This document shows positions 58,630-62,737 of a stretch of DNA of 64,000 nucleotides, in pieces. The stretch comes from Candidatus Multivoradales bacterium (GTDB lineage Bacteria > Acidobacteriota > Thermoanaerobaculia > Multivoradales > JAHEKO01), in NCBI GenBank assembly GCA_965223155.1, contig CBDCVR010000015.1:800001-864000 (forward strand). The letters run 5' to 3'. The translations under genes were made by a program, and so were the position numbers. Below the pieces are notes generated by a model. It did no database searches. It was not told where the DNA came from and worked only from the letters and a program-made list of their open reading frames with translations. The number at the start of each line of letters is the position of its first letter. Position 1 is the stretch's first letter.

Positions 58630-60687
58630 CTAGGCGGCATCCGAGCGCACGACCCATACCAGGCCGGCCACGGCGAGCACCGTGCAGAGTCCGGCGGGAC
58701 CGGGCGCGCCGAGGATCCAGAAGCCGATTCCAAAGAGGCTGCCGAAGACCACGACCAGGCCGGCCGCGAAACGGGTCAGCATCGCACCGGCCCGATCCGG
58801 CGAGGAATCGACATACGGGCGCCAGCCCGGACCCGCCGGACGCACCTTGCGAGCGAAGGCCTCGAGCACCCGCCGATCGTTCTGCGGTCCCCAGATCGCC
58901 GTCGGCAGCCACGCCGTCAGGCTCACCGCAGCGACGATGAGAATCTTCGCCCAGGCGGCGATCTCGGTCACGAAGAAGGGGTTGGTGCCTCCCAGGAGCC
59001 GCGGCGCGCCGCCGAGCTCGAGCCCTAGCGCGGTCAGTGTCGTGGCCCCAAGCGCGGCGAGCTCGGCATGGGCCGTCACTCGCGGCCAGTACCAGCGCAG
59101 GGCGGTTACACTGCCCAGGCCGGCGCCAAGGGTAATGAGAAAGCGCCACACCGTGGCGATGTTCTGGATGAAGAGCGCTGTACTGCCCGCCAGAACCGCG
59201 ATCAGCACGATCGCGATCCGGCTCGCCGTGACGTAGTGGGCCGGCGCGGCATCGCGCTTCACGAACCTCTGGTAGAGATCCCGGACAAGATACGACGCGC
59301 CCCAGTTGGTATGGGTGTCGATCGTGCTCATGAAGGCCGCCAGCAGGCTGGCGACGACCAGTCCCAGAATTCCGGAGGGCAAGTTCCTCCGCATCATGAG
59401 CGGATACGCCATCTCGCGATCGTCCAAGGTCAGGAGAATCGAGCCCAGCTCGAACCTCCGAACCGTCCCGCAGACGGCCTCGAGCGGCAGCTCGCCGCCA
59501 CCGCGCCAGCCGGACAGTTCGAACGGCGACCGGCCCGGCACAGGTTCTCCGCCGATCTCGAGGCGGCATGACGACGGCAGGCCGGTAACGACGAGCCGTG
59601 CGTCTCGTCCGAGATCGATCGGTCCGGGCGAGACGACAACTGTGGCCGCGCCCTCCGGAAGGGCCAGCTCGAAGCTCCGTTCCGGGAAACTCGTACCCTC
59701 CGTGAGCCCGGCCGGCTCCGCTCGCGGATAGACCACCAGCGCCGCCAGGGCGACCAGAATCCAGGGCCAGGGCCGGAGAGCGTTGTGGGCGATGGCGAAC
59801 CAAAGACTGGCACCCTGCGCTTCGCCCTCGCTTCGGCACGAGGCCAGACGCTGCACGATATAGCCCTGCCCCTCGGCCAGGCGCCACCAGCCGGCGACCA
59901 GAAGGACGACAAAGTAGATCCAGCTGATGGATCCCTCTCCGGAAGGCAGGAAGCCGAGAAGCTCCTGGGCTTCGGCGCTTCCCCCGACCGAGCTCTCGAG
60001 CGCTCCCAGCAGGCCCTCGCCGGACGTCGAAGCGGGTTCGCTCAGCGCGCCGACGCCGCCGAAGTCGGCCAGGACGAACCAAGCCAGCGCCAAGGCGCCG
60101 ACGACACCCATCGCGAACTGCACGAGATCGGTCACGACCACCGAGCGCAAGCCCCCGAGGGTCGTGTAGGCAACCGAGGCGATCAGACAGACGGCGATCA
60201 CGAACACCGGCTCGACCGAGAAGAAGGAGCGCGTGATCTTGACCATCGCGGCGATCACCCAGGCCATCGTCAAGCAGTTGACGAAGAGGCCGAAGTAGAT
60301 TGCCTTGAAGGCCCGGAGCACTGCGGCCGCGCGGCCGCCGTAGCGCAGCTCCACAATCTCCGCGTCCGTCAGCACACCCGACCGGCGCCAGAGCCGGGCG
60401 AAGAAGAACGTCGCCGCCAGGTGAGCGATCGCCCAGTTCCACCAAATCCAATTGCCGCTGATGCCGTCGGCCGCGACCAAGCCGGTGACCGCCAGCGGCG
60501 TATCCGCCGCAAAGGTGGTAGCGACCATCGAGGTTCCGGCCAGCCACCAGGGGAGGTTCCGGCCGCCGAGGAAGAAGTTCTCGAGATCGGTGCTGGCCCG
60601 CCTGGAAAAATACGCTCCGACCGCGATAGCGCAAAGCAAGTACAGCCCGATAATCAGAAAATCGATGCCGACCAGGCCGGGACTCAT
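58630..60687 (-). CDS. Sodium:solute symporter family protein with extracellular insertion
   Basis: FFLGGRNLPWWLAGTSMVATTFAADTP, GGLRSVVVTD, AAFMSTIDTHTNWG. Confidence 0.9.
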   Translation of the reverse strand: MSPGLVGIDFLIIGLYLLCAIAVGAYFSRRASTDLENFFLGGRNLPWWLAGTSMVATTFAADTPLAVTGLVAADGISGNWIWWNWAIAHLAATFFFARLWRRSGVLTDAEIVELRYGGRAAAVLRAFKAIYFGLFVNCLTMAWVIAAMVKITRSFFSVEPVFVIAVCLIASVAYTTLGGLRSVVVTDLVQFAMGVVGALALAWFVLADFGGVGALSEPASTSGEGLLGALESSVGGSAEAQELLGFLPSGEGSISWIYFVVLLVAGWWRLAEGQGYIVQRLASCRSEGEAQGASLWFAIAHNALRPWPWILVALAALVVYPRAEPAGLTEGTSFPERSFELALPEGAATVVVSPGPIDLGRDARLVVTGLPSSCRLEIGGEPVPGRSPFELSGWRGGGELPLEAVCGTVRRFELGSILLTLDDREMAYPLMMRRNLPSGILGLVVASLLAAFMSTIDTHTNWGASYLVRDLYQRFVKRDAAPAHYVTASRIAIVLIAVLAGSTALFIQNIATVWRFLITLGAGLGSVTALRWYWPRVTAHAELAALGATTLTALGLELGGAPRLLGGTNPFFVTEIAAWAKILIVAAVSLTAWLPTAIWGPQNDRRVLEAFARKVRPAGPGWRPYVDSSPDRAGAMLTRFAAGLVVVFGSLFGIGFWILGAPGPAGLCTVLAVAGLVWVVRSDAA

Positions 60688-60723: not shown

Positions 60724-60756
60724 AAACGAAGAAAGCCCCGGTCGAGCGACCGGGGC
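60724..60756 (-). terminator. Intrinsic terminator
   Basis: Minus strand GCCCCGGTC-gctc-GACCGGGGC (9-bp perfect stem) followed by TTTCTTCGTTT. Confidence 0.85.
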
Positions 60757-60829
60757 CAGGTGGTTTGTTAGGTGGCGTTGGGCTTCCTAGTAGGGGCCCT
60801 TCCAGTGCGCCACGCGCGAAGAGGATTCC

Positions 60830-60874
60830 CTAAAGGGACGCCACCTCCATCAAACCGCGTTTCTCAGATACCAC
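60830..60874 (-). CDS. Putative 14-aa small peptide MVSEKRGLMEVASL
   Basis: AGAAAGGAGG, 7-nt spacer, GTG start, 14 codons, TAG stop. Confidence 0.5.
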   Translation of the reverse strand: MVSEKRGLMEVASL

Positions 60875-60999
60875 TGGACCACCTCCTTTCTGGGCGAATC
60901 CGCAAACTGGCGGGACCCAAGTCCGCCCGATCCTCCCGACCGCCCAAGCCGTTTGGACCGCCGCGTCTCCAGTGCGAAGCCGCGGGCACGACTGGCTGC

Positions 61000-61028
61000 A
61001 TGTTGCAGCAAAGATTTTCCTCTGTCAA
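61000..61028 (-). promoter_or_regulatory. Sigma70-type promoter of the small transcript
   Basis: TTGACA (61028-61023), 17-nt spacer, CAACAT (61005-61000). Confidence 0.65.
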
Positions 61029-61080
61029 TCCTGGAATCTCCCTCCCTCATGCCGAGTTACGCCGACTTTGAGCAGGGCGA

Positions 61081-61998
61081 TCAGAACGGGAGCGGCTCTC
61101 CGCTGGTCTCGGTCTGCGCCTTGTGAAGTTCCTGCAGCCGCTCGGTCACCGGTCCTCGCGCTCCATCGCCGATCTGCCGGCCATCCACCTCGAGGATCGG
61201 GCTCAGCTCGCCGACGGTGCCCGTGGTGAAGGCCTCGTCCGCCGTGTAGAGCTCCGAGAGGCTGAGGTTGCGCTCGCGCGAGGGAATGTCGTTGTCCCGC
61301 GCCAGCTCGAGGACGACGCCGCGGGTAATGCCGGGCAGGCAGCTATCGGCGTGCGGCGTCTGAAGCTCGCCGCGGCGCACCAGAAACAGGTTGGTGGCGT
61401 TGGTTTCGGACAGAAACCCATTGAGATCCAACATGACCGCGTCGTCTACGCCGGCGACGTTGGCCTCGATCTTGGCCAGGATGTTGTTGATCAGGTTGTT
61501 GTGATGGATCTTCGAATCGAGGGTCTGGGGCGAATTGCGCCGTACCGAAGCCGTGACCAGCCGCACTCCCTTCGAGGCATAGATCGGCGCTTTCCACTCG
61601 GCCAAGACGATCAGGCAGCACCCCATGCGGTTGAACTCCGGGCTCATGCCGGAGGTGACCTTGGGACCACGAGTCAAGGTCAGCCGGAGGTGGGCACCGT
61701 CCCGCATGCCGTTGGCCTCCAACGTTTCGAAGATGGCCCCCTTGATCTCGTCGCGGGACGGCACACCGTCGAACGCCATGGTGTGGGCCGAGGCCTCGAG
61801 CCGGTCGAGGTGGGCGTCGAGCTGGAAGATCCGGCCGTCGTAGACCCTGAGACCCTCCCAGACCGCGTCGCCGCCCTGGACGACGCTGTCGAAGACCGAC
61901 ACCGAGGCCAGGTGACGGGATACCAGATCGCCACCCACGTGAACCTTGATGTCGGCATTGCGGGGATCCGGAAGCTCGTCCGGGCGGTAGCTCCTCAT
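61081..61998 (-). CDS. Aminotransferase class IV (branched-chain amino acid aminotransferase-like)
   Basis: GDAVWEGLR, HLDRL, SKIHHNN, ETNATNLF, CLPGITR, DEAFTTGT. Confidence 0.92.
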   Translation of the reverse strand: MRSYRPDELPDPRNADIKVHVGGDLVSRHLASVSVFDSVVQGGDAVWEGLRVYDGRIFQLDAHLDRLEASAHTMAFDGVPSRDEIKGAIFETLEANGMRDGAHLRLTLTRGPKVTSGMSPEFNRMGCCLIVLAEWKAPIYASKGVRLVTASVRRNSPQTLDSKIHHNNLINNILAKIEANVAGVDDAVMLDLNGFLSETNATNLFLVRRGELQTPHADSCLPGITRGVVLELARDNDIPSRERNLSLSELYTADEAFTTGTVGELSPILEVDGRQIGDGARGPVTERLQELHKAQTETSGEPLPF

Positions 61999-62008
61999 GC
62001 TGAGTCTC

Positions 62009-62737
62009 CTAGCCGGCCGCCCGAATGGCCCGAGCGTACAGACGCTGGTAATGAGGGAGGCACTCTTCAAGCAGGCCTTCGAGGTGCTCGGGAACGGGTT
62101 CGGCCTTGGGTCGGTAGGGCATGAAGCCGGTCGAGCGGTGCACGTTCCGGTACCAGTGGGGCGCCCAGACCCCGTCCTCGGCTCTGGCGCCCGCCGGCCA
62201 GGACAGCATCGCGGGATCGAAGTCGATTCCGATCGCCTGGCACAATCGCTCGAGCACCCCGGCCGGATCCAACAGAATCTCGCGCGAATCCACGACCGGC
62301 GGATCCTGGCCGCGGGCGACGAGGTCATCCAGGAGCTCGGTCTGATCGGCCAGCCCGGTGTCTCCGATCCCCGGATTCGGTACCTGGTGCACCAGCGAGG
62401 TCAGGACTTCGGCCGGATCCCGGATCAAGAGCACGTTGACGGTCTCATCCAGAAACGAGGGTTCGAGACCGCGCAAGTGGTGGGCCATCTGCTTGAAGAA
62501 CAGAACCGCCCGGTCGCACGGTCCCAGCACGACCTCTCGCACCACTCGCTCGCCGTCGGTGTCCATCGCGGCCAGCACCTCGTCACGGCCGGGGTGGTCG
62601 ACACCAGACAAAGCGAGGTAGTAGCCGTAGAGCGGCTCGTCCACGACCCGTGTGTCCGAGCGCTGCGCGAACGAGTACATGAGCGCCGTCGAGACATTGC
62701 GCGGACCCGACCAGAGACACAGCCGTAGGACCGACAT
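62009..62737 (-). CDS. Sulfotransferase-like P-loop protein
   Basis: LWSGPRNVSTALMYSF, DEPLY, KQMAHH, LIRDP, DGVWAPHWY. Confidence 0.85.
   Translation of the reverse strand: MSVLRLCLWSGPRNVSTALMYSFAQRSDTRVVDEPLYGYYLALSGVDHPGRDEVLAAMDTDGERVVREVVLGPCDRAVLFFKQMAHHLRGLEPSFLDETVNVLLIRDPAEVLTSLVHQVPNPGIGDTGLADQTELLDDLVARGQDPPVVDSREILLDPAGVLERLCQAIGIDFDPAMLSWPAGARAEDGVWAPHWYRNVHRSTGFMPYRPKAEPVPEHLEGLLEECLPHYQRLYARAIRAAG

Follow-up and report, generated by a model that had tools for sequence, protein, structure and literature searches.

A candidate gene for a ribosome-docking small mRNA of the rre kind in Acidobacteriota

INTRODUCTION

The closest described systems are the rre RNAs, small messenger RNAs (mRNAs) represented by rreB of the Bradyrhizobiaceae (165 nucleotides (nt), 14 amino acids (aa)) and rreR of the Rhodobacterales (18 aa), which in the available part of the report by Hahn et al. 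(RNA Biol 2017, PMC5711450) are described solely from Alphaproteobacteria. On that account an rre RNA is complementary over 16 nt or more to the 3' end of its own 16S ribosomal RNA, the complementarity ends in the initial nucleotide of the GTG of a very short open reading frame (ORF), and this small ORF is conserved within a clade. Here we describe a locus of about 270 nt on the minus strand of a 64,000-nt stretch of DNA (contig CBDCVR010000015.1, positions 800,001 to 864,000, from Candidatus Multivoradales bacterium, Acidobacteriota; the whole stretch is called the window below), which very probably is a gene for a ribosome-docking small mRNA of this type.

rreB contains a 17-nt stretch complementary to the 16S 3' end that takes in the initial nucleotide of the GTG opening its 14-codon ORF, and of that complement the five 5' nucleotides alone are predicted to be single-stranded. 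The RNA associates strongly with the 30S subunit and is translated weakly; the duplex reaching into the start codon hinders initiation, and exchanging the start codon for a stop codon stabilizes the transcript. The function of rreB is given as unknown, its overexpression having no effect on growth, and the RreB and RreR peptides, conserved within their clades, are unstructured when synthesized and produce no phenotype when overproduced (all from the accessible sections of PMC5711450). A literature search from which most subscription journals were missing returned no paper on rre-like RNAs outside Alphaproteobacteria.

A preliminary description of the locus, made from its sequence, had recognized a structured small RNA with a very strong ribosome-binding site and a mini-ORF, and had proposed that a conformational switch controls the loading and release of ribosomes. 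The first of these proposals is borne out by comparison with relatives of the locus; the second is not, as set out in the Discussion.

RESULTS

A ribosome-binding site complementary to the whole free 16S tail

All of the flagged features are present at the positions given for them and are sensibly read on the minus strand (Table 1). The Shine-Dalgarno (SD) sequence ahead of the mini-ORF, SD1, pairs without a break over 18 positions, one of them G.U, with the 16S 3' end of its own genome (..CCUGUGGCUGGAUCACCUCCUUUCU), a pairing that spans the entire free 16S tail plus two bases of helix 45 and finishes on the G that opens the GTG start codon. The nearest-neighbor energy of this duplex is -35.6 kcal/mol, compared with -12.2 kcal/mol for a plain AGGAGG, and the 13-mer AAGGAGGTGRTCC occurs at two places in the 4.0-Mb genome, namely SD1 and the antisense of the 16S gene. 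Set beside the features of rre RNAs named above, the locus has 18 complementary pairs, an ORF of 14 codons whose GTG supplies the last paired base, and a small ORF retained in 40 of 41 homologues, with residues conserved in the C-terminal half only.

In partition-function folding of these 41 sequences, a mean unpaired probability of 0.70 predicts an open AGAAA extension of the SD, and a value of 0.33 an SD core that is in part paired. One competition just ahead of the SD is conserved, in which a CGCCC segment can enter either of two structures: pseudoknot 1 with the loop of helix P1, which covaries, or a hairpin with the SD core (ACGCC with GGUG.., loop AGAAAG). The strands of this hairpin are paired in 91% of cells without covariation, and 497 of 500 shuffles did as well; we keep the hairpin as a possibility.

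The 41 homologues, aligned with MAFFT in ignorance of structure, comprise 20 loci from the same order, 16 of 26 loci that contain the strict pattern AGGAGGTGRTCYWGTG-N17-32-GGAGGTGG, and 5 of 118 listed loci that contain the 17-mer AAGGAGGTGRTCCAGTG, which consists of the 16S-tail complement and the GTG. Left out were 5 duplicate loci, 5 near-identical members of one genus and 4 loci of a type, called EVAE below, that has no 5' domain. Taxon names of relatives are the labels of metagenome-assembled genomes (MAGs).

A mini-ORF of constant phase with a second SD

The GTG is invariant and stands at canonical spacing. An in-frame stop follows it in 40 of the 41 homologues, closing a frame of 13-16 codons that keeps the same phase throughout, and all three stop codons are in use (TAG 29, TAA 9, TGA 2). 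From the GTG to the second SD, SD2, the distance is 26 nt in 35 sequences, 29 nt in four, 23 nt in one and 32 nt in one; the six length variants all differ by multiples of 3, and the phase is constant. In the exceptional homologue, L020 (G012:C9, element at about 1495-1751), the TAA of the hairpin loop misses the phase by one base, and the frame runs on without a stop past the tail helices to the end of the aligned stretch, which may reflect a sequencing error or a real variant.

SD2 had been noticed as a GGAGG (60848-60844) placed 8 nt ahead of the final sense codon, CTT (60835-60833), where it might pair with 16S just as the ribosome reaches the stop. The position of this element is indeed conserved. 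It is invariant in 41 of 41 homologues, GGAGGUGG recurring 11 nt before the stop, and the gap from GGAGG to the stop is 11 nt in 38 of them and 14 nt in 2. Such conservation fits pairing with 16S at termination, short of proving it. Many members of a second phylum described below (L173, L180-L183, L041 and L097) have one extra codon before the stop and encode 15-residue peptides ending ..EVASLx.

The peptide itself is less constant than its frame. Even members of one genus differ freely at residues 2-6 (VSE / EID / EFD), and the C-terminus is a constant xEVA[S/A/T]x whose codons are fixed at their third positions too (GAG GTG GCG is invariant), which points to selection at the RNA level. Judged from the aligned sequences, phase, length and stop are under selection, the peptide sequence itself not clearly so; the act of translation, rather than the sequence of the peptide, appears to be what is conserved.

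A covarying fold with two pseudoknots

The fold model was written by hand and contains 41 pairs. Over the alignment 87.2% of cells are paired, against 81.8% in shuffles, and sliding the 3' partners by 1-3 columns leaves pairing at 40-52%; changes on both sides occur at 25 of the 41 pairs, and the observed values were reached by none of 500 shuffles. Individual helices were also put to a cognate test, in which alignment-free duplex energies of a sequence's own strands were compared, by permutation, with those of strands taken from other sequences. These permutations treat related sequences as independent and overstate significance; the compensatory cases in separate lineages are the stronger argument. 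Ten loci of the second phylum, which lay outside model building, show new compensatory pairs.

At the 5' end, hairpin P0 gave a cognate energy of -8.14 against -7.59 kcal/mol (63 of 5000 permutations as good) and takes the forms CCACG/CGTGG, CCATC/GATGG and TCACG/CGTGA in relatives. Helix P1 is paired in 92.7% of cells; 5 of its 6 pairs change on both sides, and its cognate energy is -9.18 against -7.29 kcal/mol (0/5000). Its loop forms pseudoknot 1 with the 5' edge of the SD, paired in 82.9% of cells and changed on both sides at 5 of 7 pairs (-12.12 against -11.50 kcal/mol; 52/5000); variants are GAGCG/CGCTC in five sequences, AGGCG/CGCCT, and GGACG/CGTCC in two second-phylum loci of the test set. 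In one locus, L174 (G499:C55), the P1 loop has no GGGCG strand and can form a 6-bp hairpin of its own (CGAGCC/GGCTCG), and ahead of the SD stands AGGGCG in place of ACGCCC; pseudoknot 1 is there either lost or has its strands swapped. Hairpin P2 is paired in 94.7% of cells and changed on both sides at 3 of 6 pairs, with GGTGAG/CTCACC in L177.

Pseudoknot 2 joins the P2 loop to the 3' tail (cognate energy -7.36 against -6.54 kcal/mol; 0/5000). Its strands were tabulated for 51 rows, five of which (L173, L179 and L181-L183) were set aside with the junction mis-extracted or unclassified. Among the 34 rows with GGG/CCC, the flanking pair is T/A in 16, A/T in 9, A/A in 8 and T/G in 1, so that a T on the junction side stands solely opposite A. 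CCCC occurs solely with GGGG; L019 has AGG/CCT, and L163 and L141 have GGGG/CCCC by eye.

The 3' half of the ORF, from codon 7 onward, is folded onto the 3' tail by helices H_A and H_B, the 6-bp and 9-bp helices of the preliminary description, and both are conserved and covary across the 41-sequence alignment. H_A is paired in 77.1% of cells, shows both-sided changes at 5 of 6 pairs and recurs as GGTCTG/CAGACC, GGTTCG/CGAACC, GGATTTG/CAGATCC and TGTCCG/CGGACA (-7.83 against -5.67 kcal/mol; 0/5000). H_B is paired in 96.6% of cells (-13.69 against -13.21 kcal/mol; 37/5000); its SD2 strand is constant, its tail strand changes almost solely to wobble-compatible bases, and true compensation is seen at the two outer pairs only. 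In 1000 dinucleotide-preserving shuffles of the 219-nt span, a control suggested earlier as a test of these helices, no shuffle held a 9-bp helix extended across short internal loops by a 6-bp one, and 85 held a perfect helix of at least 9 bp. Helices of at least 7 bp number 4 in the span, against a shuffled mean of 1.45.

The stop codon does lie, as described, in a hairpin, and this hairpin covaries, with 79.3% of cells paired and both-sided changes at 3 of 4 pairs (-6.53 against -5.96 kcal/mol; 134/5000). Because of pseudoknot 2 and H_B, the conserved 13-nt tail AACCCAACGCCACC would be fully paired, with the P2 loop and with SD2, and the segment of SD and ORF is predicted to be clamped between 5' and 3' domains that pairing ties together. 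A further candidate helix, in which a CUCC-like stretch that follows the stop hairpin would pair with a GGAG-like one further downstream, was rejected: a crude cognate test gave -14.86 against -14.96 (1778 of 3000 permutations as good), and CTCC is present in 25 of 41 homologues.

A probable stand-alone gene with changing neighbors

A 393-nt gap between two minus-strand genes contains the flagged span, 60758-60976; of these genes, there is one upstream for a class IV aminotransferase (Pfam Aminotran_4) that ends at 61081, and one downstream for a sodium:solute symporter (Pfam SSF) that starts at 60687, 37 nt past the terminator. The transcript probably starts near 60993, judging from the hexamers listed in Table 1; a consensus promoter scan of the region called no promoter at TTGACA/CAACAT.

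Its own genome has one copy of the 381-nt gap sequence. Among 41 genomes in a sample of the same order, 27 have matches to it at E < 1e-6, a tally that includes the window's own genome and the unpublished G005, which is counted nowhere else; the other 14 genomes gave chance-level matches only. Four DNA contig sets, all from one study, contain this DNA. Among the 20 loci of the order, the aminotransferase stands upstream in close relatives only, and the gene on the 3' side is SSF in the window and a histidine kinase in six loci. A same-strand SSF gene downstream is found at the window locus only, L022 having SSF upstream instead. Distant relatives have unrelated genes on both sides, the downstream ones often on the other strand. 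These varying flanks, together with the predicted terminator and the conserved -10-like word, point to a free-standing gene of about 270 nt rather than a leader of the symporter gene.

Rfam recognized no family at its gathering score anywhere in the 64-kb window; matches at E up to 10 were chance-level ones and the 5' word of CC2171 (see below). As to the annotated frames nearby, the longest aminotransferase ORF (61081-62328, minus strand) has 415 codons from an ATG at 62328, about 180 codons ahead of the Aminotran_4 domain, and the stop-to-stop frames of 314-332 codons in close relatives indicate that the true start is probably further downstream. On the plus strand, a 99-codon ORF (60772-61071) spans the RNA gene and is most likely spurious in this G+C-rich DNA.

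Table 1. Features of the RNA gene and its surroundings (window coordinates)
Feature	Position	Strand	Description
-35-like hexamer TTGACA	61023..61028	-	Putative, read from the sequence; 17 nt upstream of the -10-like hexamer
-10-like hexamer CAACAT	61000..61005	-	[C/A]A..AT word kept at the same place in the 20-locus alignment
RNA gene	~60993-60724	-	About 270 nt; predicted transcript
P0 hairpin	60961..60985	-	CCGCG 60985-60981 with CGCGG 60965-60961; loop holds upstream copy of the 9-nt repeat
P1 helix	60929..60959	-	GGTCC 60959-60955 with GGATC 60933-60929; encloses the pseudoknot 1 loop
Pseudoknot 1	60890..60947	-	P1 loop TTGGGCG 60947-60941 with CGCCCAG 60896-60890, at the 5' edge of the SD
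P2 hairpin	60909..60927	-	GGCGGA / TCCCGCC, loop CUUGGG
Pseudoknot 2	60779..60919	-	P2 loop UGGGU 60919-60915 with GCCCA 60783-60779, directly 5' of the H_B tail strand
SD1 AGAAAGGAGGTGGTCCAG	60874..60891	-	18-nt complement of the genome's own 16S 3' tail; nearly invariant
Mini-ORF MVSEKRGLMEVASL	60830..60874	-	GTG 60874-60872, 14 codons, stop TAG 60832-60830
SD2 GGAGGTGG	60841..60848	-	Within the ORF, 8 nt ahead of its final sense codon; invariant in 41/41
Helices H_A + H_B	60762..60856	-	H_A GGTTTG 60856-60851 with CAAACC 60767-60762; H_B AGGTGGCGT 60846-60838 with ACGCCACCT 60778-60770
Stop-codon hairpin	60827..60838	-	TCCC-TTTA-GGGA
Intrinsic terminator	60724..60757	-	Predicted; 10-bp stem with 8 G-C pairs (60757-60734), then T-rich run; position kept in homologues

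Distribution of the family and of the bare ribosome-binding site

The strict pattern was found in 26 of 401 genomes sampled from Acidobacteriota (14 of 18 in the window's order, 0 of 21 in the rest of its class and 12 of 362 in the remaining classes), and a reversed-pattern control gave 0 matches. A second phylum, with the MAG labels Krumholzibacteriia and 'Fibrobacteraceae', has it in 40 of 121 genomes, and there the length differences among the matched strings are all multiples of 3.

The bare 17-mer occurs in at least 118 places in the species collection, and at 111 of the 118 matches listed the GTG opens a frame of at most 30 codons. The matches listed include several unrelated peptide families and extend over Alphaproteobacteria, Acidobacteriota, Planctomycetota, Gemmatimonadota and others, at least five phyla. 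These short frames suggest that the rre design is far more widespread than the alphaproteobacterial orders treated in the available text of Hahn et al.

Individual matches among those listed (L028-L145) include Acidobacteriota loci with a 6-codon MRYxLR frame (L033, L050, L072), Phycisphaerae loci with frames of 11-12 codons (L051, L081, L083, L091), one locus from Gemmatimonadota (L098) and two from Burkholderiales (L077, L089). The EVAE-type loci L054 and L110 (Terriglobales / Acidobacteria MAGs), L116 and L065 share the SD word and have a frame of 15-19 codons ending ..EV(A/V/P)(E/V)x, with GAGGTG 11 nt before the stop and without the GCGGCGG/GGGCGG 5' domain; this group may be a reduced relative of the present family. 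The idea that a second SD near the stop is a general feature of rre RNAs was dropped: the family has the element and so do the four EVAE-type loci, yet of the alphaproteobacterial loci no more than about half carry it.

DISCUSSION

The pairing of SD1 with the whole free 16S tail, the constant phase of the mini-ORF and the covarying fold around it enable us to propose what this RNA is and how it might work. We regard it as likely that the locus is a free-standing gene for a ribosome-docking small mRNA of the rre kind that works broadly as follows. The identity of the gene as one of rre type is the firmer part of this proposal and is held with considerable confidence, while the details of remodeling and hand-over are tentative, a little short of even. 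By analogy with rreB, the RNA would bind the 30S subunit and be translated, and tight docking, poor initiation and ribosome-dependent decay are features that it may share with rreB as described in the accessible text (PMC5711450).

In this model, the 30S subunit would nucleate on the exposed AGAAA and then zip up the whole 16S tail. Docking would be very tight and, with the start codon occluded by the duplex, mostly unproductive for initiation, and translation would be rare or slow. H_A starts 18 nt after the GTG, a distance that would place it at the entrance of the mRNA channel, and an elongating ribosome would melt H_A and H_B, releasing the tail and pseudoknot 2 and undoing the fold. Once the last sense codon, or the one before it, occupies the P site, the freed SD2 would lie 8 nt upstream and could pair once more with the anti-SD. 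The conformation and lifetime of the RNA would thus be set by ribosome engagement, and its output might be decay, a freed C-rich tail, the peptide or sequestration of 30S subunits. That phase, length and RNA pairing are conserved rather than the peptide points to engagement of the ribosome as the function.

A more elaborate version of this model, which we think rather improbable, would make the RNA a regulated ribosome clamp. The 5' double-pseudoknot domain would sense a ligand, a protein or the 30S platform; CGCCC would toggle between pseudoknot (SD open) and hairpin (SD closed), gating docking; and the ribosome would be handed from SD1 to SD2 at the stop. If so, one ribosome would be held on a 45-nt frame from start to finish, and the RNA would be a natural device for measuring or withdrawing free ribosomes, present in at least two phyla and analogous to, and independent of, the alphaproteobacterial rre RNAs.

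Several observations weigh against the identification of the gene as rre-type or against the proposed working. No sequence or covariance-model similarity to rreB, rreR or CC2171 was detected beyond the ribosome-binding site, and the rreB experiments are consequently carried over by analogy. The absence of a growth effect on overexpression of rreB, as given in the available text of PMC5711450, makes a simple role as a ribosome sponge unlikely. The folding energy of the single sequence is ordinary (z = -1.08), so that the case rests on comparison with relatives, and in that comparison the permutation statistics are inflated by relatedness. L020 is without an in-frame stop, and the gap between SD2 and the stop, often 14 nt in the second phylum, shows that the termination geometry is not strict. 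The C-terminal half of the peptide, GLMEVAS, coincides with the RNA-level constraints, which makes selection for coding inseparable from selection for structure.

Were the RNA instead purely non-coding, a structured decoy for the 16S tail or a device for parking 30S subunits whose 'ORF' is never translated, phase and stop would have to be by-products of structure. The stop, however, is in frame in 40 of 41 homologues with each of the stop codons used, the six GTG-SD2 length variants all preserve the phase, and the GTG is invariant at canonical spacing. It is true that the RNA is far more structured than an mRNA requires and that the conserved peptide residues coincide with paired RNA segments. 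A duplex running into the start codon should also hinder initiation, as Hahn et al. found for rreB, yet rreB is weakly translated all the same (PMC5711450, accessible text). We consider the non-coding reading unlikely.

The 14-residue product could, alternatively, be the effector, with the fold serving only stability and control of expression. Conservation of frame and length and the constant xEVA[S/A/T]x would suit a micropeptide gene, but residues 2-6 vary freely even within a genus, and the third-position fixation of the constant codons indicates selection on the RNA. The alphaproteobacterial peptides offer a similarly mixed precedent: RreB and RreR are conserved within clades, but the synthetic peptides were unstructured and overproduction gave no phenotype (PMC5711450, as far as the available text goes). 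The evidence makes a gene of this sort quite unlikely.

The switch proposed earlier is a bistable one, in which the 3' end pairs with either the ORF or the loading SD and the start codon with either copy of a repeat, controlling ribosomes in the manner of type I toxin mRNAs. Every alternative helix that it calls for exists in the window. AGGTGGT (60884-60878) in SD1 can form 7 bp with ACCACCT (60764-60758), a strand that overlaps the CAAACC strand of H_A and makes the two helices mutually exclusive, and the start-codon segment TCCAGTG (60878-60872) has two possible partners in CACTGGA at 60807-60801 and at 60974-60968, copies of the 9-nt repeat. SD1 and SD2 moreover share GGAGGUGG, so that either could in principle be the partner of the conserved CCACC tail (-12.1 against -17.7 kcal/mol). 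The ACCACCT partner and both CACTGGA partners are, however, missing from most of the 41 homologues: by eye, about 5 of the 41 have a CCACC word after the tail helix, the upstream copy of CACTGGA is unique to the window genome, and the downstream copy is confined to close relatives. Where SD1 is GGTGATCC, the tail forms 4 bp at most with it. The proposed switch is therefore not a property of the family, and we hold it to be very improbable.

The comparison with type I toxin mRNAs (hok, aapA, fst), on which the switch had leaned, fails. These mRNAs resemble the present RNA as small structured messages with long-range 5'-3' pairing at an SD-like sequence, and co-transcriptional refolding is conceivable here too. 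The conserved long-range helix, however, covers the internal SD2 and not the ribosome-loading SD1, whose sequestration is not conserved; the peptide is short, with 4 charged residues in 14 and no hydrophobic stretch, a lack of hydrophobicity that the preliminary description had also remarked; and the gene is single-copy and vertically conserved across an order. An antisense gene is not evident, conserved plus-strand features not having been looked for. A type I toxin was rejected on peptide composition and on the lack of conserved SD1 sequestration. Finally, that the RNA is a cis-acting leader, an attenuator or riboswitch, of the symporter gene is hardly credible, for the terminator closely ahead of a same-strand gene and the short upstream ORF are outweighed by the absence of conserved linkage, the downstream genes differing among the 20 loci, and of any Rfam riboswitch match, and the gene neighborhoods contradict it.

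If the locus is the rre-type gene that we propose, it belongs to a class that is among the few natural RNAs pairing with the entire mRNA-docking tail of the ribosome. The covariation-rich fold offers testable handles in its two pseudoknots, its ribosome-melted tail helix and its invariant SD2 at start-like spacing from the stop. The survey with the 17-mer, with frames of at most 30 codons at 111 of the 118 matches listed, suggests a simple genome-wide rule for finding such genes.

Comparison with known systems

An SD-like element inside an ORF and upstream of its stop is known from the frameshift site of prfB, the gene for RF2, where such an element a few nucleotides before the stop pairs with the anti-SD of the translating ribosome at a spacing of 3 nt. 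SD2 is similar in its placement within the ORF; it differs in its start-like spacing, 8 nt to the P-site codon, and in having neither a slippery site nor a downstream frame.

A second partial likeness is to the Caulobacter small RNA CC2171 (Rfam RF01867), with which the present RNA shares the 5' word GAAAGGAGGUGAUCCAGUG and a 3' terminator. The match (window 60819-60898, minus strand) scores 16.4 bits against a gathering score of 75 and leaves 102 middle positions of the model unmatched, and fold and ORF are different. Loci with the CC2171 word in Caulobacteraceae, Methylobacterium and others (L055, L086, L104, L131, L132) carry an MSHC... mini-ORF of 21-27 codons. Since these loci combine a 16S-tail complement, a GUG and a mini-ORF, CC2171 itself appears, from its sequence, to be an rre-type mini-mRNA that has been filed as a non-coding small RNA.

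The comparison with rreB and rreR, drawn from the available part of PMC5711450, is the closest. Common to both sides are a small transcript that stands alone (as predicted for the present RNA), a 16-18-nt complement of the whole free 16S tail ending in the first base of a GUG, and a very short ORF conserved only within its clade. They also share an SD of which only the 5' extension is predicted to be single-stranded, the core lying in a hairpin, and a gene neighborhood that is not conserved across orders. The present RNA differs in its length, greater by about 100 nt, in its 5' domain, its two covarying pseudoknots and its 3' domain of several helices, in having a second, invariant SD within the ORF at a fixed distance from the stop, and in its occurrence in Acidobacteriota and the Krumholzibacteriia-labeled phylum rather than in Alphaproteobacteria. 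Its mini-peptides are unrelated to MSxxKRCHLAGIAR and MSRxxLERGVGT. With the ribosome-binding site and mini-ORF of an rre RNA, yet with no detectable similarity and a larger, more structured body, the present RNA is, as far as sequence can tell, an analogue or very distant relative of the rre RNAs. The design would then not be confined to Alphaproteobacteria and would recur, apparently independently, in Acidobacteriota and a second phylum.

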